NCBI RefSeq assembly: GCF_030684315.1
Contig: NC_081380.1
Span: 29,323,951 to 29,387,950 of the forward strand
Source of the DNA: Stegostoma tigrinum
Lineage: Eukaryota
DNA: 64,000 nucleotides
Direction of reading: 5' to 3'
The position numbers and the translations under genes are program-made. Positions within the stretch are counted from its first letter, which is position 1. The number at the start of each line of letters is the position of its first letter. A model generated the notes under the pieces. The model had not been told where the DNA came from. It did not search any database and worked only from the letters and a program-made list of their open reading frames with translations. Positions 4,708-59,454 of this stretch are shown here, in pieces.

Positions 4708-4939
4708 TAATAGGAACTGCCGATGCTGGAGAATCTGAGACAACAAGGTGTAGAGCTGGATGAACACAGCAGGCCAAGCAGCATCAGAGGAGCAGGAAAG
4801 CTGACATTTTGGGTCTGGACCCTTCTTCAGAAATCTGAAGGAACCTGAAGAAGGGTCCGGACCCGAAACATTAGCTTTCCTAGTCCTCTGATGCTGCTTG
4901 GCCTGCTGTGTTCATCCAGCTCTACACCTTGTTATCTCA
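4708..4939. mobile_element. Fold-back PLE-terminus mini-element with inverted HHR motifs
   Basis: Arms 4737-4830 and 4845-4939 are reverse complements; flanks atgacgacagatgg (4678) / ataatgacagatgg (4939) form a degenerate 14-bp TSD. Confidence 0.85.
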
Positions 4940-9803: not shown

Positions 9804-10023
9804 ACTGAAATATGATGATCTGTCCCAGGTATATTGTCGGAATCTATTGGCTCCAAGTGGCTGGAGTGTGTTGCAGAATGATGCCAATAGCATGGGTTAC
9901 ACCACACTCTAGCCAACTAAGTCAACAGAGATAAGGGGAACTGCAGATGCTGGAGAATCCAAGATAACAAATTGTGGGGCTGGATGAACACAGCAGGCCC
10001 AGCAGCATCTCAGGAGCACAAAA

Positions 10024-10054
10024 GCTGACGTTTCGGGCCTAGACCCTTCATCAG
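10024..10054 (-). ncRNA. Minimal type-I hammerhead ribozyme motif (intact core)
   Basis: CUGAUGA-A-GGGU(CUAG)GCCC-GAAA-CG-UC-AGC. Confidence 0.7.
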
Positions 10055-10270
10055 AAAAGGGGGATGGGGAGAGGATTCTGAAATAAATAGGGAGAGAGGA
10101 GGAGGCAGACTGAAGGTGGATAGAGGAGAAGATAGGTGGAGAGGAGAGTATGGGTGGGGAGGTAGGGAGGGAATAGGTCAGAACGGGGAGGACGGACAGG
10201 TCAAGAGGGCGGGATGAGGTCAGTAGGTAGGAAATGGAGGTGCAGCTTGAGGTGGGAGGACAGGATAGGT

Positions 10271-10459
10271 GGGAGGAAGAACAGGTTAGGCGGGAGGAAG
10301 AACAGGTTAGGCGGGAGGAAGAACAGGTTAGGCGGGAGGAAGAACAGGTTAGGCGGGAGGAAGAACAGGTTAGGCGGGAGGAAGAACAGGTTAGGCGGGA
10401 GGAAGAACAGGTTAGGCGGGAGGAAGAACAGGTTAGGCGGGAGGAAGAACAGGTTAGGC
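10271..10459. repeat. 9 perfect copies of a 21-bp unit (gggaggaagaacaggttaggc)
   Basis: Directly visible; translates as (GGRKNRL)9. Confidence 0.97.
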
Positions 10460-11603
10460 AGGCGGGGACGAGCTGGGCTGGTTTTGGGATGCAGTGGGGG
10501 GAGGGGAGATTTTGAAGCTGGTGAAATTCACATTGATACCATTGGGCTGCAGGGTTCCCAAGTGGAATATGAGTTGCTGTTCCTGCAACTGACAGGCGGC
10601 ATCATTGTGGCACTGCAGGAGGCCCGGGTTGGACATGTCGTCTAAGGAATGGGAGGGGGAGTTAAAATGGTTCACGACTGGGAGGTGCCATCGTTTACTG
10701 TGAACCGAGTGTAAGTGTTCTCCAAAGTGGTCCCCAAGCCTCCGCTTGGTTTCCCCAATGTAGAGGACGCCACACTGTGTACAACAGATGCAGTATACTA
10801 CATTGGCAGATGTGCAGGTGAACATCTGCTTGATGTGGAAAGTCATCTTAGGGCCTGGGATGGGGGTGAGAGAGGAGGTGTGGGGGTACATGTAGCACTT
10901 CCTGCGGTTGCAGGGGAAGGTGCCGGGTGTGGTGGGGTTGGAGGGCAGTGTGGAGCGGACAAGGGAGTCACGGAGAGAATGGTCTCTCCGGAAGGCAGAC
11001 AAGGGTGGGGATGGAAAAATGGCTTGGGTGGTGAGGTCGGATTGTAGATGGCGGAAGTGTCGGAGGATGATGCTTTGTATCCGGAGGTTGGTGGGGTGGT
11101 ATGTGAGGACAAGGGGGATTCTGTTTTGGCAGTTATTGCGAGGGCGGGGTGTGAAGGAGGAGATGCGGGAAATGCGGGAGACACGGTCGAGGGCATTCCC
11201 GACCACTGCAAGGGGTAAGTTGCGGCCCTTGAAGAACGAGAACATCTGGGATGTGTGCGAGTGGAATCCCTCATCCTGGGAGCAGATGCGGCTGAGGCGA
11301 AGGAATTGGGAATAGGGGATGGGATATTTGCAGGAGGGTGGGTGGGAGGAGGTGTATTCCAGGAAGCTGTGGGAGTCAGTGGGCTTGAAATGGACATCGG
11401 TTTGTTGGTGGTTGCCTGAGATGGAGACAGAAAGGTCCAGGAAGGTGAGGGATGTGTTGGAGATGGTCCAGGTGAACTTGAGGTTGGGGTGGAAGGTGTT
11501 GGTGACATGGATGAACTGTTCGAACTCCTCTTGGGAGCATGAGACGGCGCCGATACACTCATCAATGTAACGGAGGAAGAGGTGGGGTTTTGGGCCAGCG
11601 TAG
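10454..11603 (-). pseudogene. PLE RT/GIY-YIG polyprotein fragment (~380 codons, no internal stop, no N-terminus)
   Basis: The 263-aa ORF extends upstream in frame by hand translation (TYAGPKPHLFLRYIDECIG...); the catalytic YIDD reads YIDE. Confidence 0.85.
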
Positions 11604-13170
11604 GTGCCAGCATTTCCCTCAATTCACTCCTATACCTGCTGTAATAGTTCAATGAGGACTGCCTCCTGGCTGTGCTCCATGTTTGGTGTTCCACAAGCTA
11701 TATAACAGTTTACTTCCCTCTCATAGAGAGGGTGGCATCTATAGTTCCTCATGATCTGTTGTGATTTACCTAAGATTAAAAATGCTCCCCATCCTTAAAA
11801 AGGGCAGACTAGTTTGCAGATACACATTCACCTGCAATACTGAATTTTAGCAAAGCAAACCTGTCTAAAAATGTTTTCTTCCACCTCTCACATGCTCCAT
11901 TGCTGTTATTTAAGTGAAAGCAAGTGGTCTCATTTTTTTTTGTCCAGGCCTAAGTTCAATTGACAGAAAACATAGCTGGGATCCAGATCCTGTACCAGAA
12001 AAGTGACTAGGATATTACTGAGAAGTCAATGTAAAATTTTCAATATTTATTATCCAATAAGACTTGATTAACATGCAAAATATAACTGATCATTCCTCAT
12101 AACTTTAGTCATTGCAATATCACAACAGTAAAATATTCACTTTCATGCAGCATTTCCCATGATAGCTACTACTCGTTAACTGAGCTCTCATTCATAGTAA
12201 ATTCATAGATTATGTTCTGAGTTTCCAATGTGTTTCAGTATGCAATTGCTCTAGGACCACGATTAACACATTCCCATTCAAGTGAAAGCAAGCTGATGAT
12301 CACAAGCATGCTCAAGATAACATATTGGTATTTTACTACATCTCAAAAAAATTGTATAATTAGTCATCTGTGCCTATGAAATCTATTACTATGGGAGGTG
12401 TGGACTTCAACTTATTGATACTGTAGCACAGATATTTGAAACCAAGAGGTGAAGTAGGATAGGAACAATATTCATGATATTTCACCTTGTGGAAAAGTAT
12501 TTGCAGAAACTGAAAACCTGCAAAAACTAAAAATCAAACAGAAAACCAAACAATTGCAGTGGACATTCCTAACCTGAGGTCTTTGCTTGCATTATACAAC
12601 CTGCTCTCTGCTGCCAGTTTGGATCATCATAAAATTTCATTGGTGTTTAACATGAAGTCAAAGAAACAGTGGAGCAGAGGCACAGCTGAAGCTAGCCAAA
12701 CAAAACAGAAATATTTTTCTGGACACCTCCACAGGCAGAAACTGCCCAGTCATCCTTCACAGGCCAGTGATCAGGCACCTCCTGTCACACTGGATGAAGT
12801 ACAGTGGGTAGCTGGGTCTTGTTAAGAAGGGTCACTTCAACCTTGAAAAGCTCCAACTCAAACACTGTCCTTCTCAGTACTCCCACTCAATGAACAGACG
12901 ATTAGATTCAAACAAACGTAATCATACCAACATGTACAGAAATATACAACAGGGATAAATAATTGTTTGCACTTTAGCTGCTGTTTTCAGTGTCTTGTTG
13001 TCATCTTGAAGAATACTTAGTCAGAAGCAAATTAAAAAGTCAATGAGAGTTGAAATGCAACACGGGGTAATGTTGGATGGGATGCATATTATAGTTTGGG
13101 GCTCCTGATGCTCTTTTTAAGTCAGAAGTCACACAGCACCAGGTCATAGTCCAACAAGTTTATGTGAAAT

Positions 13171-13451: not shown

Positions 13452-15570
13452 GATTAGGCAAGATTTAGGGAGCATAGGAGGGGGAAGGAAACTGCAGGGG
13501 ATGGGCACATTAGAAATGTGGAGCTTATTCAAGGAAAAGCTCCTGTGTGTCCTAGATAAGTATGTACCTGTCAGGCAGGGAGGAAGCTGTAGAGTTCAGG
13601 AGCCGTGGTTTACGAAGGAGGTGGAATCTCTGGTCAAGAGGAAAAAGAAGGCTTATGTTAGGATGAGATGTGAAGGCTCAGTTAGGGCACTTGAGGGCTA
13701 CAGGTAGCCAGGAAGTACCAAAAGAGAGAACTCAGAACAGCCAGGAGGAGACATGAGAAGTTGTTGGCGGATAGGATCAGGGTAAACTCTAAGGCTTTCT
13801 ATAGGTATTTAAGGAATAAAAGAATGGCCCTAATTTTACTCTCGTCAATCAAAGATAGTAGTGGGAAGTTGTGTCTGGAGTCAGAGGAGATAGGGGAAGC
13901 ACTAAATGAATATTTTTCGACAGTATTCACTCTAGAAAATGACAATGTTGTCAAGGAAAATACTGAGATACAGGCTACTAGACTAGGTGGGATTGAGGTT
14001 CACAAGGAAGAGGTATTAGAAATCCTACAGAGTGTGAAGATAGATAAATCACCTGGGCCGGATGGGATTTATCCTAGGATCCTCTGGGAAGCCAGGAAGG
14101 AGATTGCTGAGCCTTTGGCATTGATCTTTAACTCGTCATTGTCTACAGGAATACTCCCAGAAGACTGGAGGATAGCAAATGTGGTTCCCCTGTTCAAGAA
14201 TGGGAGTAGAGACAACCCTGATAATTATAGACCAGTGAGCCTTACTTCAGTTGTTGGTAAAGTGTTGGAAAAGGTTATAAGAGATAGGATTTATAATTAT
14301 CCAGAAAAGAATAATTTGATTAGGGATAGTCAGCTTGGCTATGTGAAGGGTAGGTCGTGCCTCACAAACCTCCTTGAGTTCTTTGAGAAGGTAACCAAAC
14401 AGGTAGATGAGAGTAAACCGGTTGATGTGGTGTACATGGATTTGAGCAAGGCTTTCGATAAGGTTCCCCACAGTAGGGTATTGTACAAAATGGGGAGGAA
14501 TGGAATTGTGGGAGATACAGCAGTTTGGATCGGAAATTGGCTTGCTGAAAGAAGACAGAGGGTGGTAGTTGATGGGAAACGTTCATCCTGGAGACCAGTT
14601 ACTAGTGGTGTACCGCAAGGGTCAGTGTTCGGTCCACTGCTGTTTGTCATTTGTATAAACGACTTGGATGAGGGCGTAGAAGGATGGGTTAGTAAATTTG
14701 CAGACAACACTAAGGTCGGTGGAGTTGTGGATAGTGATGAAGGATGCTGTAGGTTACAGAGAGACATAGACAAGCTGTAGAGCTGGGCTAAAAGGTGGCA
14801 AATAGAGTTTAATGCAGAGTTTAAGTGTGAGGTGATGCACTTTGATGGGAGTAACCGGAAGGCAAAGTACTGGGCTAATGGCAAGATTCTTGGTAGTGTA
14901 GATGAGCAGAGAGATCTCGGTGTCCATGTACACAGATCCTTGAAAGTTGCCACCCAGGTTGACAGGGCTGTTAAGAAGGCATACAGTGTTTTAGCTTTTA
15001 TTAATAAAGGGATCAAGTTCCAGAACCATGAGGTTATGCTGCAGCTGCACTTGGAGTATTGTGTACAGTTCTGGTCACCGCATAATAAGAAGGATGTGGA
15101 AGCTTTGGAAAGGGTGCAGAGGAGATTTACTGGGATGTTGCCTGGTATGGAGGGAAGGTCTTACGAGGAAAGGCTGAGGGATTGGAGGCTGTTTTCATTA
15201 GAGAGAAGAAGGTTAAGAGGTGACTTAATTGAAACATATAAAATAATCAGAGGGTTAGATAGGGTGAATAGGGAGAGCCTTTTTCCTAGGATGGTGACCG
15301 CGAGCACGAGGAGGCATAGCTTTAAATTGAGGGGTGAAAGATATAGGACAGATGTCAGAGGTAGTTTCTTTACTCATAGTAGTAAGGGAATGGCACACTT
15401 TGCCTGCAACAGTAGTAGCTTCGCCAACTTTAAGTACATTTAAGTCATCATTGGATAAGCATATGGACGTACATAGAATAGTGTAGGTTAGATGGGCTTC
15501 AGATTGGTATGAAGGTTGGCACAACATCGAAGGCTGAAGGGCCTGTACTGTGCTGTAAATGTTCTATGTT
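13452..15570 (+). mobile_element. CR1 LINE, 5'-truncated, ORF2 RT pseudogene
   Basis: [34 protein letters not shown]; in-frame stops; tail gttctatgttcta; TSD ctagatga (13444, 15571). Confidence 0.96.
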
Positions 15571-20567: not shown

Positions 20568-21982
20568 GAGTGTTAAATTTCTCCATTGTAATAAAAACTA
20601 TGGAAAATTTGTTCTTTAAAAAAATTCTTAAGACATGTTTAGATTGATCTTAATCAAACTTGTTTGCCCCAATTATTTGTCACTCACTATTACATTTTAA
20701 TTAAAAGTGAATGCTTCCTTGGGTTTTTACTTTCTGATTTGCTCTGCTAGAAGACTTCAATGAGATTGGTTCATAACATCATTATTGCTACTTAGAGATT
20801 CCCTTGACCTAACACCAGTTTTAAACTGGTAGGGAGAGAAACGCAAGACACAGTAATGACATATCTTTGTGGGCAAATTTTTTTAAGGCCAGTTATGAAC
20901 ACAAACATCAGTTGCTAACCAGAATGTGCATGCACATTGTTATCTCTGCTATCAGGAGTCAAAGAGTGGAGCTGGATGAACACAGCAGGCTAAGCAGCAT
21001 CTTAGGAGGACAATAGAACATAGAACATAGAACAGTACAGCACAGAACAGGCCCTTCAGCCCACAATGTTGTGCCGACCATTGATCCTCATGTATGCACC
21101 CTCAAATTTCTGTGACCATATACATGTCCAGCAGTCTCTTAAATGACCCCAATGACCTTGCTTCCACAACTGCTGCTGGCAACGCATTCCATGCTCTCAC
21201 AACTCTCTGCGTAAAGAACCTGCCTCTGACATCCCCTCTATACTTTCCACCAACCAGCTTAAAACTATGACCCCTCGTGCTAGCCATTTCTGCCCTGGGA
21301 AATAGTCTCTGGCTATCAACTCTATCTATGCCTCTCATTATCTTGTATACCTCAATTAGGTCCCCTCTCCTCCTCCTTTTCTCCAATGAAAAGAGACCGA
21401 GCTCAGTCAACCTCTCTTCATAAGATAAGCCCTCCAGTCCAGGCAGCATCCTGGTAAACCTCCTCTGAACCCTCTCCAAAGCATCCACATCTTTCCTATA
21501 ATAGGGCGCCCAGAACTGGACGCAGTATTCCAAGTGCGGTCTAACCAAAGTTTTATAAAGCTGCAACAAGATCTCACGACTCTTAAACTCAATCCCCCTG
21601 TTAATGAAAGCCAAAACACCATATGCTTTCTTAACAACCCTGTCCACTTGGGTGGCCATTCTAAGGGATCTATGTATCTGCACACCAAGATCCCTCTGGG
21701 CCTAGGCCTTTCTGACAACTTTTGTTTTCCTTCCTTTATCGCTGAGGAAAGTAGACACAGAAAATAGATGACAGAATAGGTTACTTAGCCTAGCGAGCCT
21801 GCTCTGTCATTCAAGTTGATCGTGGCTGATGGTCCAACTCTGTCTTGATCTATTTGGCATGCACAGGTAGGCTGTGTGTGTGTTTTTATTTGATTGAGAC
21901 AGATCTAAACAGGTCATAAGAATTTTTTTTAAAAGAAGAAACTGTCCATCATTTTTATTACAATGGAGAAATTTGACACCCC
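20568..21982. mobile_element. Putative non-autonomous DNA transposon relic with ~90-bp TIRs, containing nested PLE and CR1 insertions
   Basis: gtgttaaatttctccattgtaataaaaa...aatcaaa (20570-20658) is the diverged reverse complement of 21889-21980. Confidence 0.6.
21013..21697 (-). mobile_element. Young CR1 3' fragment inserted into a PLE terminus
   Basis: Stop-free 193-aa ORF (LVRPHLEYCVQFW, RGDLIEVYK, FTQRVVRAWNALP); (catagaa)n tail; PLE terminus sequence on both sides (20957-21012, 21698-21715). Confidence 0.93.
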
Positions 21983-22035
21983 GAGGCTGGTTCACAGGAC
22001 TGATTAGAGAATCTGGGTAATAGCTAGATCATCTT

Positions 22036-22130
22036 TTCTGAAGAAGGGTCCAGACCCGAAATGTCAGCTTTCCAGCTCCTCTGATGCTAATTGGCCTGCT
22101 ATGTTCATTCAGCTCTACATCTTGTTATAT
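22036..22130 (+). mobile_element. Solo PLE terminus with HHR motif
   Basis: ctgaagaagggtccagacccgaaatgtcagc at 22038; TSD ctagatcat (22024, 22131). Confidence 0.8.
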
Positions 22131-22335
22131 CTAGATCATTTTGGTGCTGTGCAAAGTTTTTTCTTAAAATGGAGTAGTCAGTTTGTCACTGGATGAAAAG
22201 GGATCCTTTCCAGCAAAAAACCATAGCATCATGTGAATATGAGAACAAAGCAAATGAACGTTTTGCCCATTATTGAGCTTGCCCATTCCAGCATCTTGCG
22301 CTGATTGGATCTGCAACTGGGCATCAAATTGGTCA

Positions 22336-22607
22336 TGATAATAAAATGTGAGGCTGGATGAACACAGCAGGCCAAGCAGCATCTCAGGAGCACAAAAGCT
22401 GACGTTTCAGGCCTAGGCCCTTCATCAGAGAGCACAAAAGCTGACGTTTCGGGCCTAGACCCTTCATCAGAGAGCACCTCTCTGATGAAGGGTCTAGGCC
22501 CGAAACGTCAGCTTTTGTGCTCCTGAGATGCTGCTTGGCCTGCTGTGTTCATCCAGCCTCACATTTTATTATCTTGGATTCTCCAGCATCTGCAGTTCCC
22601 ACTATCT
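22336..22607. mobile_element. Fold-back PLE mini-element with three HHR motifs (two tandem on -, one on +)
   Basis: HHRs at 22398-22428(-), 22440-22470(-), 22482-22512(+); perfect 14-bp TSD catcaaattggtca (22322, 22608). Confidence 0.92.
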
Positions 22608-22816
22608 CATCAAATTGGTCAGCTACTTTCCTGCCTTTCACTAGAATGGTGTAAAAATGACGTGGAAACATTAAGCATATTTTTAAAAGGATTAGATTTT
22701 CTTCCTACAAATTCTGCCCACTTGCAATCACATACTTTCAAATAGCTGCATCCCACTATTTTTTTTCCAACCTTCAGGAGGTCCATTTACCGCCTACAAG
22801 TACAAGTGAAAACCTG

Positions 22817-23637
22817 AGATAATGGGAACTGCAGATGCTGGAGAATTCCAAGATAATAAAATGTGAGGCTGGATGAACACAGCAGGCCAAGCAGCATCTC
22901 AGGAGCACAAAAGCTGACGTTTCGGGCCTAGACCCTTCATCAGAGAGGGGGATGGGGAGAGGGAACTGGAATGAATAGGGAGAGAGGGGGAGGCGGACCG
23001 AAGATGGAGAGTAAAGAAGATAGGTGGAGAGAGTATAGGTGGGGAGGTAGGGAGGGGATAGGTCAGTCCAGGGAAGACGGACAGGTCAAGGAGGTGGGAT
23101 GAGGCTAGTAGGTAGATGGGGGTGCGGCTTGGGGTGGGAGGAAGGGATGGGTGAGAGGAAGAACCGGTTAGGGAGGCAGAGACAGGTTGGACTGGTTTTG
23201 GGATGCAGTGGGTGGGGGGGGAAGAGCTGGGCTGGTTGTGTTACACAACCAGCCCAGCTCTTCCCCCTCCCGCCCCACCCGCTGCATCCAAAAACCAGTC
23301 CAACCTGTCTCTGCCTCCCTAACCGGTTCTTCCTCTCACCCATCCCTTCCTCCCACCCCAAGCCGCACCCCCATCTACCTACTAGCCTCATCCCACCTCC
23401 TTGACCTGTCCGTCTTCCCTGGACTGACCTATCCCCTCCCTACCTCCCCACCTATACTCTCTCCACCTATCTTCTTTACTCTCCATCTTCGGTCCGCCTC
23501 CCCCTCTCTCCCTATTCATTCCAGTTCCCTCTCCCCATCCCCCTCTCTGATGAAGGGTCTAGGCCCAAAACGTCAGCTTTTGTGCTCCTGAGATGCTGCT
23601 GGGCCTGCTGTGTTCATCCAGCCTCACATTTTATTAT
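22817..23637. mobile_element. ~820-bp near-perfect palindrome of PLE 3' region
   Basis: Centre ggttgtgt-t-acacaacc at 23242; mirror ORFs 23086-23391(-) and 23099-23404(+); perfect 14-bp TSD caagtgaaaacctg (22803, 23638). Confidence 0.95.
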
Positions 23638-24312
23638 CAAGTGAAAACCTGTCCTGGAAAACCTGTAGGTATTGCACTAATTATACAGCTGTTCCAACAG
23701 TTTATTTGGCTACACTGACAATCTACTTTTGTGATTCAATTGGATGCATTAGTTGCAAATTGATACTCCAGTCCCAATAAAATGACAAATCATAAATGAG
23801 CACCTGCATTGTGCTAAAAGCTGGTTCCATTATACATTGCATGAATCACTCATTTAAACAACCTGTAAAAGTCTGTGTGAGAATTTGCTTTGTGCCAGCA
23901 GTTTTCGCAATAGTTCAGATATTCTCACCTCTTAAATGCCCTTAAAACAATCGCCAGCTTAACTGAGAGTTGAACTACTTAAAGCAAAGTTATTGCAATG
24001 TAAAACACTACAAATGTAAACAAAACAAATATTTCTGACAAACACCCGAATCTTGTGGTGCATAACAAGTGGCTTGAAAAATAAACGTGAATGCAGAAAA
24101 CTCAGCTATGTTAAAAGGGAAACATCCCAGTACTGGATCAGCAAATCCACTGCAATCATTGGATCTATTGTGAAAAACCAAATAACAAGGAAAAATGACA
24201 GCTCGGTGTAGCATCTGCCAAAAAAGAACAAAAGACCAAGAAAAACATATGTGAAGTCACAGATCACGTATCTAAACAGTTGGTGAAATGCTATGGGTAC
24301 TCACTAGGTGAC

Positions 24313-33794: not shown

Positions 33795-35020
33795 ACCATA
33801 ATTCTGTGTCGATAAAGGAAATGTTGTTCCAATTAAGCAGCATCCTTTTAGACTTAACCCTTTAAAGTTGGTGCACATTTAAAAAGAAAAGATTGAAAGC
33901 ATGCTCAAAGAAAATATAATCAAAGTGAATTGGATCAATTGGAGCTCACCCATAGTAATGGCGCCAAACCATTCACTGGGTACTATTACAAAGTCAATGC
34001 AGTTACAATATAAGATTCATATCCTATTCCATGTTTGGAAGACTGTATTGAGGATGTGGGACAAGATCTTATATTTTTAGGTTGGACTTACTCAGAGGAT
34101 TCTGGCAGGTATCTTTATTGGAAAGAGTGATGGAAATTTCAGTTTTTGTGACACCAAATGGACTGTACCAGTTTAAAGTCATGCCACTTAATTTGAAGAA
34201 TGTGCCAACCAAATTTCAAAGACTAACCAATAAAGCTATTTCAGGATTACCCAGTTGTGCAGAATATCACGTCATTGCCTGTGTATAAAGTTCACGGAAG
34301 GAACATTCGGAGCATCTAGCAGAATTATTCAATTGACTTCTCCAGACAGGCTTAATGATGAATCTAGCTAGGAGTGAATTCACAAAAAACCTGTTACTGG
34401 ACATGGACAGATAGCCCCTTGGGATATGAAAACAAAGGTTATTGGGGACTTTCCCCATACTGTCGAAGAAGAAGGAAGCACTACAATTCCTGGGACTGAA
34501 TCTTTTTTAAATCGGAAGCACAGGCTGAAGTTCAGCAGCATGGTTGCTGCAACAACTGAACTGTTGAAGAAGTGAAGAAAATTTCAGTGGATGGAAAAGT
34601 TTCAAAGGGTACTAAACTCCCTGAAAATTGTGTTGACCTCTGCTCCAGTGTTGGCCACACCTAACTACGCAAAGCCATTCAAGGTGGTTAGCAATACGAG
34701 GGATATGGGTATCGGTGCTGTGCTCTTGCAAGATGACAAATAGCTTAATCCAAATCCAAAAAGCTTAATATTCATCAATAGAAGAATCCCACAATAGCCT
34801 GGTGAGTTGGGTGCTGGCATTGCAATGTTCCAAGATTAATTTTGCCAGTAAGGTGTCTGAGACAACTATATATACTGATCATAACCCCTTGAAGCTCTCA
34901 GAAACATTTAAAGATAAAATTTTGAGACTATTTCGATGAAGCTTATTATTGCAGCCATTCAATTTGAAATGTATAGATGTGGCAGGATGAGAGAACATAA
35001 TTACTGGTGAATTGTTGTGG
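33795..35020 (+). pseudogene. Gypsy LTR retrotransposon pol relic (RT + RNase H)
   Basis: PIKQHPFRL, WSSPIVM, DSYPIPCLEDCIE, LDLLRGFWQV, FVTPNGLYQFKVMP, LTSAPVLATPNYAKPF, GIGAVLLQ, YTDHNPL. Confidence 0.92.
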
Positions 35021-36445: not shown

Positions 36446-37440
36446 AACATAAGAACGTAAGAACTAGGAGCAGGAGTAGGCCATCCGTCCACTTGAGCCT
36501 GCCCTGCCATTTAATAAGATCACGGCTGATCTTTTTGAGACGCAGCTCCACTTACCCGCTCACTCACCATAACCCTTAATTCCTTTACTGTTCAAAAAGT
36601 TATCTAGCCTTGCCTTAAACACATTCAGCAAGGTAGCTTCAACAGCTTCACTGGGCAGGAAATTGCACAGATTCACAACCCATTGGGTGAAGAAATTCCT
36701 CCTGACCTCCTACATCTGCTTCCCTTTATTTTGAGGTGATGTCCTCTAATCCTAGTTTCACCTGCTAGCGGAAACAATCTCCCTGCTTCCATTATTTCTA
36801 TTCCTTCATAATCTTATATGTTTCTACAAGATCTCCCCTCATTCTTCTGAATTCCAATGAGTATAATCCCAGTCTGCTCAGTCTCTCCTCATAATCCAAC
36901 CCTCTCAACTCTGGAATCAACAGAGTGAATCTCCTCTGCACCCGCTCCGGTGCTAGTATATCTCTTCTCAAGTAAGGAGACTAAAACTGCACACGGTACT
37001 CCAGGTGTGACCTCACCAGGACCCCATACAGCTGCAGCTGTTTTTAAACTCCATCCCTCTAGCAATGGCAGATAAAATTCCAATTGCCTTTTTATTACCT
37101 GCTGCACCTGCAATCCTTCTTTTAGCGATTCATGCACAAGGGCACCCAAGTCCCTCTGCACTGCAGCGTGCTGCAATTTTTTAACCATTTAAAACATAGT
37201 CCATTTTGCTGTTATTTCTACCCAAATGGATGACCTCACACTTATCAACATTATACTCGATCTGCCAGACCTTTGCCCACTCACTTAGACTATCTATATC
37301 CCTCTGTAGGCTTTCAGTGTCTTCTGCACACTTTGCTTTACCACTCACCTTAGTGTCATCTGCAAATATTGACACACCACACTTAGCCCCCAACTCCAAA
37401 TCATCTTTGAAAATTGTCAACAATTGCAGTTCCAACACTG
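36446..37440 (-). mobile_element. CR1 3' part nested in a Deu-SINE
   Basis: VSIFADDTKV, LQRDID, DKCEVIHLG, QRDLGALVHESLK; tail aacataagaacgtaagaa; Deu-SINE sequence at 36375-36445 and 37450-37580. Confidence 0.92.
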
Positions 37441-39402
37441 ATACACTAATACCAAAGTGTAGTCACTGTTGTAATGAAGGAAACATGGCAGTTACTTTAT
37501 GCACAGTAAACTCCCATAACAACAATGCATTTTGTGCGATACCGATTGAGGGATCAATAGTAGCCAGGATCCTCTGACCAAGGTATCTAAAAGAAAATAG
37601 TTTTTAATCACTGTGTTGCAATTTATGGGCCACCCTGCTCAAATTGCTGCTGCATTTCCTATTTTACAGCAATGAGTGTATTTCAAGGAGTGCTTTTTGA
37701 CTGTGAATCACTAAGACACATCTTGGGGCCCTAAAAGATATCACATGAAACACTTTCGCTCGTTACGTTGTGCACAATGGACAACCAAAGCTTACGTACA
37801 CATTCCCAAATGACAAGGCTTCCCATCTGGAACAAAGCATCAGATTATGTTGCACTTAGTCTTTCATTTTCAGGAAGCTCACCAATTCAAGGCGTTATTT
37901 AAGAATTGTCCATCTACACATTGTGAAGCATAGCTAGGGGCTAGTATTTGGCAACAACAATTCATTCAGACAGCAAGCATGAGCTGCAAAATGAACAAGA
38001 AGGCTTAAAGTATTGAAAATACATCAGGCTTTAAAAATAAGATCTATAAAAACCCTGATTTTCTGGTAAACCGGTCACTGCAGCATGGCTGAAGGTAGTC
38101 CCGTTTTCAAAGTAAGCATTCTAAAATAACTGATTTAAAATGACTGAACTGCGCCAATATATCTTCCTGCTTTACCTCTGAACCACAGTAGTTACTGCTT
38201 CTGCACTGTGGCAACCGTGAACTCTAACTTAAAATTGCACAGTTGTAATTCGTAAGTATCATCCAGTTTTGCCATGTATCAAGTTGAAATAGGATTTTCC
38301 TACTTGAAGAAACCTTTCAGCACAGTTTACCAATGTAGATTAGATCCACACTGGAGTAAAATCACATTAATTACTGTTATATATTCGCTGACACTCGTTG
38401 GGAGCCGCAATTACTAACAAAAGGGACTATGAGTTGCACTGCATTCACCATTTTGTTAAGGAGATCTCAGTGAAACTTTAATGAATGTGTCAAAACCCAC
38501 TTATGTTACACCTCACCTGCCACATAAAGATGATGGATTTTTGCAATAATACAACTCCTGAAAATGGAAGGGGATTTGCTCAAGACTCCACGTTCAAACA
38601 TCAGTGATGATGCATGAGCGTTCATTGGTTCAATAACGCAATGAACCTGAACCTCACTGCACAAATAAAAACAGATGGACGGGCCAGTAAGTAACCACAA
38701 AGGGATGATTTTCTGAGCAAACAAAGCACATAATCCCCTCTGCTCTTCTCTAAATGAATAGAGTATGTGAATTCTTTGCTGTATTTGCTGGCGGAATAAA
38801 TCAATGCAACAAGGCTTGGTAGGAAAAAAGTTGCTGAATAAAAATTCCATGTAAAGTATGGAGTAGCAAAACAAAGATGAACTCATGGGACAATCAGACA
38901 GACAAGAATATTCTGTTTGTAAGCTACATTTCCATGTTACCAAATATAATTAAGTCATACTTTAGAACACAATGGATAAGGCAATAGATTTACATTTTGA
39001 ACACCAATTATGGTCTCAGACATGCTGAAGTTTGGCAAGTCCTTTCAGAAGAACAAATGCGTTAAAAAAAAGTTTTTCAATTGCATCGTTGCATATAATT
39101 AGAACAAAACAAAGACATTTTAAAGAAATAGAGGGTTTTGGTTGTTCTAATTTGCTAGGTGTTTGTATATTAAGGTTTGTAGTCTATCACAAATGTGTCC
39201 TCTGCCCATTGGCAGCTCCTTGGCTCATTTTCTGTTGATGCTTTGTCCTGAGCTGTTTCTCTTGGCAGCCATCACCATTTGTCATTGTCTTCCATTGTCA
39301 GGGGCAAGATGAGGATACAGGCTCCAAGACTATCTCAGGCAGAATGAGGCTCAACTCCACTTTTGGCATCATTCTGAACCACACACTAGCTGTCTGGGCA
39401 TG

Positions 39403-40524: not shown

Positions 40525-41690
40525 AATTTGATTGAGTTTTTTGAAGAAGTAACAAGGAGGATTGACGAGGGCACAGCAGTGGATTTGATCTGGTCAGATC
40601 ACACAGAATAGGGGGAGAACTAGCCTTTTGGACACATAACTAGCTTGAAGGTAGGAAACAGAGGGTACTGGCAAAGGGCTGCTTTTCAGCCTGGAGGCCT
40701 GCGGCCAGCGGTGTGCCACAAGGATCGGTGTTGGGTCCACTGCTTTTTGTCATTTATATAAGTGATTTGGATGTGAACATAGGAGATATGGTTAGTAAGT
40801 TTGCAGACAAGACCAAAATTGGAGGTGTAGTGGACAGTGAAGAAGGTATCTCAGAGTACAACAGGACCTTGATTCGATGGGCAAATGGGCTCAGAAGTGG
40901 CAGATAAAGTTTAATATGGATAAATGTGAGGAGCTACATTCTGGAAAAGCAGACTAGGACAGGACTTATACACTTAATGGTAAGGTCTTAGGGAATGTTG
41001 CAGAACAAAGACCTTGGAGTGCAGGTTCATATTTACTTGAAGAGGAGTTGCAGCTGGATAGCATAGTGAAGAAGGCATTTAGTATGCTTGTCATTATTGA
41101 TCAGTGCATTGTGTATAGGACTCATGTTGTGGTTGTACAGGACATTTGCTAGGTCACTATTGGAATACTGCATGCAATTCTGGTCTTCCTGCTATAGATA
41201 GGATGTTGTGAAACGAGAAAAGGTTCAGAGAAGAATCACAAGAATATTGCTAAGGTTGGAAGGTTTGAGCTATAGGGAGAGGCTGAATAGGCTGAGGCTA
41301 TTTTCCCTGGAGTGTCAGAAGCTAAGGGATGACTTTATAAAATCATGAGGGGCTTGGATAGGGTAATTAGATAAAGGTCTTTTACCTGGGGTGAGGAAGT
41401 CCAAAACAAGACAGTTTAAAGTGAGAGGGGAAAAGGTTTAAAAGGGATGTAAGGGATAACTTTTTCCACGTAGAGGGTTGTGCATGTATGGAATGAGCTG
41501 CCAGAGGAAGTGGGAGATGGGGTACGATTACTACGTTTAAAAAGCACCTGGATGGGTATATGAATAGGAGGGGTTTAACGGGATGTGGGCCAAATGCTGG
41601 AAAATAGGAGTAGATTTATTTAGGATATCTAGTCAGCGTGGATGAGTTGAAATGAAGGGCTGTTTCCATTCTATACAGTTATATGACTCT
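40525..41690 (+). mobile_element. CR1 RT fragment to 3' end (decayed)
   Basis: PQGSVLGPLLFVIYISDLD...KFADKTKIGG; LEYCMQFWS; tail atatgactct. Confidence 0.92.
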
Positions 41691-44104: not shown

Positions 44105-44490
44105 AGTCACATGGCACAGAAGAGGGCCTTCTGCCTGCCAAAGCTGCACTTTCAAAAAATTACTCTAAATCTACGTTCATCCCACTTTCCAGCACTTGGC
44201 TCATAGCCATGAATGCAATGACATTTCAACTGCACATCCACACATTTTTTTTTTAAAAGAGGTGGTGAGTGTTCCCCCTCTACCTTGTTCTGAGGAAGGG
44301 TTACCAGACCTGAAACATTAACTCTGATTTCTCTTCACAGAAGCCACCAGACCTGCCGAGCTTTTCCAGCAATTTGTTTTAGTCCTCCCTCTACTACATG
44401 CGCAGGCAGTGCACTCCAGATTCCCACCATCCTCTAGGTGAAAAATACTTTCCTCAATTCCCCTCTGAACTTCCTGTCTTAATATCAATA
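44105..44490 (-). mobile_element. Old CR1 3' fragment containing a PLE terminus with HHR relic (44288-44381, +)
   Basis: QEVQRGIEESIFHLED(G) ORF; inserted ctgaggaagggttaccagacctgaaacattaac. Confidence 0.6.
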
Positions 44491-51940: not shown

Positions 51941-52469
51941 AAATGAGAGTTCTGTTTATCATCTGGATCAGCTGATAAAATGTTTATTCTAAGCCATACA
52001 TAGACAATAGTAGAGTAGAATTTTGCATAGCATGTGTCTGATCCAGAAAAGCATAATATTAAATTCAGATATTTGAGTGTGTTGATTATTTCTCAATGGT
52101 CTCATTTCCAAACTGTCAAGTAACCTATCAAATGTATAAGACATCATCTTCTACAACCAAGGCAGCAATTGTCAGTGGTTGATTTAACACACAGAACTGA
52201 AACCCAGCCTTTTTTTCTGCTCTTCACCATCTGCACAACTATTTGACTGAGGACTGAGATCACTATTTTGTAGTCAGTGGAAAATCTGACCACTTATTCC
52301 TTCTAACACACCAACCAAAACTCTGACTGAGATCAGCGATCTCAACAAAGATCAAGGATGGAGGCTTAAGCATTTGCGGGCTCTGTGTTGACCAGTCATG
52401 CACTTTCCAACCTAACAAAATGAGTAAAATTACAAATAAATAAACAACACATCCCACTTCCTACAGACA

Positions 52470-53566
52470 AAGAGGGTGGCCATGGGTACCTGCATGGGCC
52501 CAAGCTATGCCTGCCTCTTTGTAGGTTACGTGGAACAGTCCCTCTTCCGCACCTACACAGGCCCCAAACCCCACCTCTTCCTTGGTACACCGATGGCTAT
52601 ATCAGCGCCGCCTCTTGCTCCCCCAAGGAGCTCGAACAGTTCATCCACCTCACCAACGCCTTCTACCCCAACCTCAAGTTCACCTGGGCCATCTCTAACA
52701 CATCCCTCACCTTCCTGGACCTCTCAGTCTCCATCTCAGGTAACCAGCTAGAAACTGATGTCCATTTCAAGCCCACTGGCTCCCACAGCTACCTAGAATA
52801 CACCTCCTCCCACCCATCCTCCTGCAAAAATTCAATCCCCTATTCCCAATTCCTCCGCTGCCGCCGCATCTGCTCCCAGGATGAGGCATTCCATTCCCGC
52901 ACATCCCAGATGTCCACGTTCTTCAAGGACCGCAACTTTCCCCCCACAGTGGTCGAGAACGCCCTTGACCGCGTCTCCCACATTCTCATCAACACATCCC
53001 TCACACCCCGCCACAACCGGCCCCAGAGGATCCCCCTCGTTCTTACATACCACCCCACCAACCTCCAGATACAACGCATCATCCTTCGACACTTCTGCCA
53101 TCACTTCACAAGCTTCAAAATCTCCCCTTCCCCTACTGCATCCCAAAACCAGCCCAGCTTGTTCCCCTCCTCTCACTGCATCCCAAAACCAGCCCACCCT
53201 GTCTCCACTTCCCTAACCTGTTCTTCTTCACCCATCCCTTCCAATTACCTGAAGCCGCACCTCCATTTCCTACCTACCACCTCATCTCGCCTCGTTGACC
53301 TGTCCATTTTCCCTGGACTGACCTATCCCCTCCCTACCTCCTCACCTATACTCTCCTCTCTACCTATCTTCTTTTCTCTCCATCTTCAGTCCACCTCCCC
53401 CTCTCTCCCTATTTATTCCTGTTCTCTCTCCCCATACCCCTCTCTGATGAAGGGTCTACGCCCGAAACGTCAGCTTTTGTGCTCGAGATGCTGCTTGGCC
53501 TGTTGTGTTCATCCTGCTCCACACTTTGTTATCTTGGATTCTCCAGCATCTGCAGTTCCCATTATC
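52470..53566 (+). mobile_element. PLE family 1 fragment: RT motifs, GIY-YIG deleted, intact 3' terminus
   Basis: AMGTCMGPSYACLFVGYVE; junction RHFCH|HFTSFKIS at ~53100; intact HHR at 53444-53474. Confidence 0.93.
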
Positions 53567-53659
53567 GCATTATAACTTACTGCCTCATTTTCAAATACTA
53601 TGAATAAATTATGATTTTACGTAAAAGGGGAAATATTTGCCAAATATTCTTTGGAGAAA

Positions 53660-57535: not shown

Positions 57536-58645
57536 TGATAACAAAGTGTGGAGCTGGATGAACACAGCAGGCCAAGCAGCATCCTAGGAGCACAAAAGCT
57601 GACATTTCAGGCCTAGACCCTTCATCAGAAAAGGGGGATGGGGAGAGGGTTCTGAAATAAATAGGGAGAGGGGGGGAAGCAGATCGAAGATGGGTAAAGG
57701 ACAAGATAGGTGGAGAGGAGAAAGACAAGTTAAAGGGGCGGGGATGGAGCCAGTAGAGGGGAGTGTAGGTGGGGAGGTAGGGAGGAGATAGGTCAGTCCA
57801 GGGAGGACAGACAGGTCAAGGGGGCGGGATGAAGTTAGTGGGTAGGAAATGGAGGTGCCGCTTGAGGTGGGAGAAGGGGATAGATGAGAGGAAGAAAAAG
57901 TTAGGGAGGCGGGGACAAGCTGGGCTGGTTTTGGGATGAAGTAGGGGGAGGGGAGATTTTGAAGCTTGTTAAATCCACATTGATACCATTGTGCTACAGA
58001 GTTCCCAAGCGGAATATGCGTTGCTGCTCCTGCAACCTTCGGGTAGCATCATTGTGGCACTGCAGGAGGCCCAGGATGGACATATCATCTAAAGAATGGG
58101 AGGGGGAGTTGAAATGGTTCGCGACTGGGGGGTGCAGTTGTTTATTGTGAACTGAGTGTAGGTGTTCTGCAAAGTGGTCCCCAAGCCGCCGCTTGGTTTC
58201 CCCAATGTAGAGGAAGCCACACCGGGTACAGTATACCACATTGGCAGATGTGCAGGTGAACCTCTGCTTAATATGGAAAGTCATCTTGGGGCCTGGGATA
58301 GGGGTGAGGGAGGTGGTGTGGGGGCAAGTGTAGCACTTCCTGTGGTTGCAGCGGAAGGTGCCGGGTGTGGTGGGTTTGGAGGGGAGTGTGGAGCGGACAA
58401 GGGAGTCACAGAAAGAGTGGTCTCTCCAGAAGGCAGACAAGGGTGGGGATGGTAAAATGTCTTTGGTGGTGGGGTCGGATTGTAGATGGTGGAAGTGTCG
58501 GAAGATGATGCGTTGAATCCGGAGGTTGGTGGAGTGGTACGAGAGGACGATGAGGATTCTCTTTTGGCGGTTATTGTGGGAACGGGGCGTGAGGGATGAG
58601 TTGCGGGAAATGCTGGAGACACGGTCAAGGGTGTTCTCAACCACT
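57536..58645 (-). mobile_element. PLE family 1 fragment (GIY-YIG + 3' terminus)
   Basis: 216-aa ORF: CNHRKCYTCPH, NVVYCTRCGFLYIGETKRRL; HHR variant at 57598-57628. Confidence 0.94.
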
Positions 58646-59454
58646 GAGAGGTGGGGGTGGGGGGGAGGGTGCGGGGGGAGGTTGTGGTCTTTGAAGAATT
58701 AGGACTTTCTTTATACAAATTGTAGTTCTGAAAGCTGTACAAAACAATTTGAAATTCACAGCCGCAACACAATCAGATAGAATTTTTATTAGAGATGCTT
58801 TAAATTTAGTCGACAGACTGCATCTCAGTTCATTTCTTAATAAGAAATATGTTCTACTATTACAAATAGGACATCTTTCTCTTTCTAATTTGGAATCATC
58901 TACAGATTCAGATGGTATCATTAGCTCTGCTGCCTCTTACAGTTTGTGTAACTGTTTGTACTAAATGTTGTTTTGAATTCTTGATTTGATCAAGTTTCAC
59001 AAGGCATTGACTGTTTTCTGTAGGATGTTTTTATGGATGCCAGGTATATATCAGCCATTATCATAATTGGTAGTATGACTTGTCCTTAAATAACAGGTCA
59101 TCATGTTGAATCATTGAAGCACTTCCTACACTTTGAATGCATTTATTGCTATCACCAACAACCCCATCAACTGCAATAGAAATAATGACCACTTAATCGT
59201 TTCACTGTTGGCAAGTAACCAGGGAGGACACCAAGAAATCCTGCTTTGGTGAATGAATTCTTATCTGCAAATGAAATCGCAAAGCCAACTATAGCGTTTC
59301 ACACAATAATGATCTACTCAGTAGTCATTGAGCCGAGGACCTTCTTGGTACAATTCGCTTATTCTAAAAAAACAAAGGCAGCTTTTACAACAAAAAGTAT
59401 TAAAATGGTATTTTCTAAGGGGCTTCATAGGACCATTATAACACACTATTTTAC

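Follow-up and report, generated by a model that had tools for sequence, protein, structure and literature searches.

A 272-bp insertion with three minimal hammerhead motifs, at positions 22336-22607 of the 64-kb window (the whole stretch of DNA that was analysed), is no special ribozyme cassette: it is a 5′-truncated insertion of a Penelope-like element (PLE) in the published layout. We consider it very probable that the locus is an ordinary PLE insertion with an incidental duplication of 42 bp, and not a working cis dimer of hammerheads in its genomic context. Both the insertion and its 42-bp duplication are real in the assembly. As judged here the locus has little significance: it is one of the very numerous truncated copies of PLEs and bears a small internal duplication. 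An earlier note on this DNA had described a triple-hammerhead cassette; three hammerhead copies are indeed present, but the inverted copy, the target-site duplication and the asymmetry of the two arms are the standard PLE layout, which occurs six times in the window.

A precise insertion with an empty site in another organism

The insertion is flanked by a 14-bp target-site duplication (TSD) without mismatch, which bears out the perfect 14-bp TSD reported earlier around all hammerhead copies. Its two copies are 14/14 identical, and in the same search a score of at least 12 was reached by 0 of 300 random position pairs. The coordinates of all features are collected in Table 1. As independent sequences we compared the contigs of four of the 23 runs listed (X1, X2, X5 and X7), of which X1 and X2 represent one sample that is possibly the source of the assembly itself. 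In one contig from organism C, which is related (X7, record 25), 22130-22324 is joined directly to 22611-22810; the contig thus skips 286 bp, or 272 + 14, and represents the empty site, where the 14-mer stands once. Because organism C has this empty site, we conclude that the focal insertion is real and lineage-specific. The right junction was spanned by an X2 contig (record 16) over 22584-22810 with zero differences. The contig pieces listed, which show 15 of 1,477 joints, cover the right junction and the empty site, and leave the centre, the 42-bp duplication and the left junction unspanned.

Table 1. Features of the focal insertion and of related PLE copies in the window
Feature	Position	Strand	Remarks
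TSD, left copy	22322..22335		14 bp; single copy at the organism C empty site
Tail-less pLTR arm of PLE, with hammerhead copy B	22336..22432	-	Base 22336 does not match the element
42-bp periodic tract, 2.14 copies, 90 bp	22388..22477	-	GAGCAC (plus strand) in register at 22388, 22430 and 22472
Minimal hammerhead copy B (C3 at 22428, C17 at 22401)	22401..22428	-	Two helix II substitutions, G10.1-U11.1
Minimal hammerhead copy A (C3 at 22470, C17 at 22443)	22443..22470	-	Identical to the copy of the neighbouring insertion
Centre of head-to-head junction, 3 bp	22475..22477		Carries on the phase of the 42-bp repeat in place of the native upstream sequence
pLTR arm in inverted orientation, carrying a hammerhead (C3 at 22482, C17 at 22509)	22478..22573	+	Antisense to copies A and B
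34-nt PLE tail, this arm only	22574..22607	+	Flank junction seen in X2
TSD, right copy	22608..22621		14 bp
Neighbouring head-to-head insertion, same young subfamily, no duplication	22817..23638		Flanked by its own 14-bp TSD; tail on one of the two arms; internal control
Longer family copy: RT C-terminal part and GIY-YIG frame (10454-11623), then the same 3′ repeat	9929..11623	-	Identifies the PLE

Assignment of the repeat to an endonuclease-bearing Penelope-like element

Comparison of the repeat with the window by BLAST revealed 21 arms of the family. All three PLE reading-frame fragments (10454-11623, 52424-53575 and 57994-58698) run into the repeat. The frame at 10454-11623 (389 aa) had no Pfam match at 0.001 and a weak GIY-YIG match (E 0.026), and it matched 30 longer proteins among 2,168 candidates (best E 1.7e-101; Atlas 0.96). 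Most of these homologues carry RVT_1 and HTH_animal and some carry GIY-YIG, and the frame aligns with them over the C-terminal part of the reverse transcriptase (RT), a Cys-rich linker and the GIY-YIG motifs. Since the reading-frame fragments run into the repeat and the one at 10454-11623 has RT and GIY-YIG homologues, we assign the repeat, from sequence comparison, to the 3′ pseudo-LTR (pLTR) of an endonuclease-bearing PLE. The family is probably of the Neptune type. Within the linker that joins RT to endonuclease (EN), the homologues show the motif CxxxxCxxC, whose first two Cys are retained in the copy from the window; a Cys-rich RT-EN linker is also described for Nematis (PMC8557442). The family is very abundant, and contigs matching the stretch numbered 89,500 of 16.4 million in X1, 107,311 of 16.6 million in X2, 17,816 of 16.1 million in X7 and 972 of 16.1 million in X5. 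The junction pattern of the duplication had no match in metagenome contigs, and family patterns had none in contigs of metagenomes, viruses and prokaryotes; DNA of this organism is absent from those collections, and these blanks carry no weight.

Short tandem repeats were also seen in the 3′ region of other PLE copies. A 21-bp minisatellite (10260-10459; 9.5 copies, 98% matches) lies within the 3′ region of one copy, which shows expansion of this region through short tandem duplication, and a 40-bp two-copy repeat (53121-53213) lies in the same PLE 3′ region.

Three minimal hammerheads on two strands

Two hammerhead units in tandem on the minus strand, 42 bp apart, and an inverted intact copy had been noted before, and all three were recovered; the cores start on the minus strand at 22470 (copy A) and 22428 (copy B) and on the plus strand at 22482. 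All three copies have the CUGANGA and GAAA boxes, an extra base at 9/10.1 and a palindromic helix III. The G10.1-C11.1 pair is kept in the copies at 22470 and 22482 and is replaced by G-U in the copy at 22428. Helix I comprises 2 contiguous bp in 8/8 family cores that pass our hammerhead descriptor, which had 10 matches in the window, 2 of them from other repeats. The predicted cleavage nucleotides are 22443 and 22401 on the minus strand and 22509 on the plus strand. The two minus-strand sites are 42 nt apart, so that double cleavage would release a 42-nt unit, as had been proposed. The third hammerhead is on the opposite strand, and one RNA therefore holds either two ribozymes and one antisense copy or one ribozyme and two antisense copies; no single RNA from the focal insertion carries three ribozymes.

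Searching the window against Rfam gave 0 matches at gathering level, the Hammerhead_3 score being 15 bits against a gathering threshold of 48.5 (E 2.3), a blank that fits ribozymes lacking helix III. Sub-threshold Rfam matches to miRNAs were rejected as a mere reflection of the hairpin.

The family hammerhead (for example 22443-22470) is also a quasi-palindrome, in which 6 bp form between the first catalytic box and the helix III/cleavage segment. Its loop II is self-complementary and, together with the quasi-palindrome, gives stable inactive folds of both monomer and dimer in folding predictions. Such folds could explain a need for a protein chaperone.

The head-to-head layout is routine in this family

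Six head-to-head pairs account for 12 of the 21 family arms in the window, and TSDs of 13-14 bp were found for 3/6 of these pairs and for 2/3 of the single arms tested. A head-to-head centre at the position of the focal one is crossed by 56 contigs of X1 and 71 of X2, with 1-3 letters fewer. Given the recurrence of both the pairs and the contig centres, the inverted third hammerhead is routine. One of these insertions, at 22817-23638, is a near-perfect palindrome of 820 bp that lies 210 bp from the focal one.

The starts of the arms are clustered as well. In 9 of the 21 arms the start falls within -5..+2 of hammerhead C3, which lies some 30 nt upstream of the site of cleavage, and starts at the 5′ edge of the hammerhead are found, for example, at 4831/4845, 19531, 19731/19739, 22037, 22432, 22477 and 51938. 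This clustering at C3 is seen in both young and old subfamilies. It means that the copied templates were uncleaved and either ended at the 5′ edge of the ribozyme or had RT stop there, and it is relevant to the debate over whether PLE hammerheads take any part in template processing.

The layout itself has been published. An inverted, 5′-truncated copy beside the pLTR, with a tail of 30-40 bp at one end only, is described in the relevant part of PMC8557442, and PMC3846280 gives the same layout with TSDs of 8-10 bp and names head-to-head as the most frequent arrangement. The excerpt of PMC11167929 explains the tail by two RT start sites, with both strands nicked and extended, and it reports that the hammerhead is active only with protein and is dispensable for insertion in vitro.

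Origin of the 42-bp duplication

The 42-bp tract shows 2 differences between its copies, at 22409 and 22417, and is bounded by a 6-bp microhomology (GAGCAC). Both substitutions are confined to copy B (chance 0.024-0.048 if uniform) and keep helix II paired. Copy A and the plus arm equal the arm of the neighbouring insertion, being identical over the compared stretches; only copy B differs. The upstream breakpoint of the duplication coincides with the edge where family copies usually end, and normal pLTR follows the tract without a break as far as the start site usual for tail-less arms; the tract has no TSD of its own. Among the 8 family cores in the window, the focal pair alone has same-strand cores less than 100 bp apart.

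We give about even weight to an RT jump during insertion, against all other origins, as the source of the duplication; this mechanism is read from one junction, and slippage would yield the same sequence. On this account, the PLE protein would nick both strands 14 bp apart and prime a pair of cDNAs, which would start at the tail start site and at the tail-less site, respectively; both cDNAs would end at the 5′ edge of the hammerhead and then be joined head to head. The minus-sense cDNA would find a 3-nt microhomology on a template some 40 nt back and re-anneal there, perhaps moving between two template molecules in this first jump, and recopy the hammerhead; it would then jump again for 3 nt before being joined to the other arm. 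The extra hammerhead would thus be a by-product of insertion. The confinement of both substitutions to copy B would be expected if copy B came from a different template molecule, and these substitutions might also be explained at the DNA level, by a CpG transition or by correction of the quasi-palindrome. A 42-nt circle as the direct template of the focal insertion was considered and rejected, because the tract continues into normal pLTR.

Two further junctions were noted. The centre of an older head-to-head pair (4831-4850) holds a short partial repeat of the first bases of the hammerhead and is the same type of event at a junction as the focal duplication, on a smaller scale. An X2 joint leads from 22519 to 22480 with one letter between, at depth 151, the kind of joint not being printed; if it is same-strand, it hints at a similar 41-nt hammerhead duplication elsewhere in the genome with a different junction, and such tandems would then be recurrent.

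An alternative path, within the same explanation by PLE insertion and equally incidental, is a later origin of the duplication in the DNA: two 6-bp GAGCAC words, of which one is native and the other was created by the 3-bp junction filler, would have allowed slippage in replication or microhomology-mediated repair. We regard this path as unlikely, although it deserves serious weight: three hexamers in register flank the two units, the tract adjoins a strong DNA hairpin, and the insertion folds as DNA at -128 kcal/mol. Hexamers in register around two units are a signature of microhomology-mediated tandem duplication. However, this route needs the filler to match by chance or through an earlier templated jump, and it leaves unexplained why both substitutions fall in copy B when the rest of the insertion equals the neighbour's arm. 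That the duplication is an error of assembly or consensus, made at a palindrome within a repeat of very high copy number, appears very unlikely and is the least probable of the readings weighed here. Inverted arms of 97-100% and ~10^5 matching contigs per run make the locus hard to assemble, and the duplication is among the parts that the listed contig pieces leave unspanned. Against such an error, the units differ at 2 positions that preserve the pairing of helix II, the TSD and the right junction are exact, the empty site fits to the base, and the longer palindrome next to the locus assembled without a duplication of this kind.

Could the tandem cleave?

A nested cis double hammerhead can be drawn on the tandem, with the palindromic helix III halves paired and a helix I for each core, and to this extent the cis dimer proposed in the earlier note holds; that the dimer works finds no support, the required fold lying 59-75 kcal/mol above the ensemble in the whole insertion. 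All these energies are nearest-neighbour estimates at equilibrium, in which neither tertiary contacts nor proteins are considered. For the isolated tandem the predicted gap is 24-35 kcal/mol, and for two native copies joined by a linker it is 21-33 kcal/mol. Because native copies show nearly the same gap, that of the isolated tandem is no evidence against cleavage, and we rejected it as a refutation; the folding model evidently penalises any hammerhead of this family. In the 22480-22380 construct the two self-complementary helix II regions are predicted to cross-pair.

Specific to the whole insertion is the predicted effect of the antisense arm. In read-through RNA it would add about 35-40 kcal/mol against the double-hammerhead fold, and in a minus-strand transcript it is made first and would pair fully with copy A before copy B appears, in line with the earlier suggestion that the opposite arm sequesters one copy. 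The plus-strand transcript has a single ribozyme, whose core is unpaired with a predicted probability of about zero. Most likely, in these folding estimates, read-through RNA of the locus forms a long double-stranded hairpin (~97-99 bp) without self-cleavage.

A functional reading of the tandem nevertheless has to be weighed: that it is a cis double hammerhead from which a 42-nt RNA is released, either in place or at a source locus, and possibly the seed of a very small retrozyme-like array that was copied into the focal insertion. The catalytic boxes and palindromic helix III are intact in both copies, the nested topology is possible, two junctions are identical, and the X2 joint provides a hint. 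The tandem also has at least 2 consecutive units with a complete hammerhead, which is the operational definition of a retrozyme in the available part of bioRxiv 10.64898/2026.07.22.740005, applied here with our own descriptor. We nonetheless consider this reading improbable. The cost of 35-40 kcal/mol imposed by the antisense arm, which would be transcribed first on the minus strand, speaks against it, as do a helix I of 2 bp, the G-U pair in copy B, a tract that runs into normal pLTR with no TSD of its own, and the fact that the 8 family cores of the window include 1 such pair. Published dimers have low or no activity. Minimal hammerheads with a palindromic helix III are thought to need a dimer, a point of the earlier note with which PMC4209133 agrees in the part cited; these minimal PLE hammerheads cleave weakly even as dimers or trimers (PMC4209133; reviewed in PMC6765202), and 1/9 PLE-related dimers cleaved in the data excerpted from bioRxiv 10.64898/2026.07.22.740005. 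The G10.1-C11.1 pair is called highly conserved in PMC4209133. An ordinary PLE insertion with an incidental duplication remains the reading that we prefer, and the locus could serve as a natural test construct with minimal PLE hammerheads in cis at 42-nt spacing.

Other features of the window

Hammerhead-like cores at 44290, 50621 and 13202 belong to more distant repeats outside the family, and helix II is longer in two of the three; they probably represent further PLE families. RT retroelement fragments of other kinds, with RVT_1 matches, lie at 13695-15443, 21102-21701, 34052-34285, 37184-37462 and 40644-40904, and may be CR1/L2-like, to judge from their look. A scan for host genes covered 150 of the 243 stop-to-stop frames of at least 62 aa. 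Among these 150 frames, a 73-aa frame on the minus strand (21810-22028) had a weak ricin-B-lectin-like match (Pfam E 0.0067; Atlas 0.84), for which homologue searches gave no support; it is possibly a host exon, or a chance match.

Comparison with known systems

A more speculative idea, which we hold to be quite improbable, slightly more so than a functional tandem, is that the PLE RT repeatedly stops where the hammerhead has its 5′ edge and then returns by some 40 nt, the family in this way repeatedly spawning hammerhead-only tandems of 41-42 bp that seed very small retrozymes. If this were true, a tandem without the antisense arm could fold in cis with the help of the PLE protein, cut out a circularisable 42-nt RNA and be copied back. 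This would be a birth step of retrozymes from the pLTR, with a unit shorter than the published ones compared here, and the focal locus would be a trapped, silenced copy. Such short tandems, if recurrent and active, would show how retrozymes originate from PLE pLTRs and would give a lower bound on the size of self-processing repeats. Among the titles that our literature searches listed, none names a 42-bp hammerhead tandem; the supplementary family lists of bioRxiv 10.64898/2026.07.22.740005, which include one cartilaginous fish, could hold similar ones.

Like the non-LTR retrozymes described in the excerpts of PMC7229834 and bioRxiv 10.64898/2026.07.22.740005, the focal tandem has one type I hammerhead per unit and derives from a PLE pLTR. 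Its unit of 42 bp is, however, short beside the 150-450 bp given in PMC7229834 and the 51-972 bp of the family consensus sequences in the preprint. Its ribozyme is minimal, whereas that of non-LTR retrozymes is canonical, and the tandem is embedded in a PLE insertion with no TSD of its own, unlike theirs. As for dispersal of the 42-bp unit, there is one case in 64 kb, continuous with the pLTR. An assignment of the tandem to the retrozymes was rejected on these grounds: a unit that is too short, lacks its own TSD and is continuous with the pLTR.

The minimal hammerheads of PLEs, as given in the excerpt of PMC4209133, share with the focal copies the catalytic boxes, the extra base at 9/10.1 and a loopless palindromic helix III, and in both systems pairs on opposite strands lie close together. 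Helix I has 2 bp in the focal family, against 4-5 bp in Schistosoma and 2 bp in D. virilis. Same-strand copies are spaced by 42 bp at the focal locus and by ~3 kb in the PLEs of that study, and focal copy B lacks G10.1-C11.1, unlike the hammerheads reported there.

The closest match is with the 5′-truncated, head-to-head PLE insertions described in the parts of PMC8557442, PMC3846280 and PMC11167929 cited here. In comparison with these, the focal locus has no ORF left, and its direct repeat consists of an internal duplication of 42 bp that stops 11 nt past the cleavage site, where the known PLEs have a partial tandem that ends at the pLTR end. The focal family otherwise resembles the known EN+ PLEs in carrying a hammerhead in its pLTR and an RT and GIY-YIG frame in its longer copies, and the focal locus shares with the published insertions the inverted pLTR arms, the tail on one arm and the TSD.
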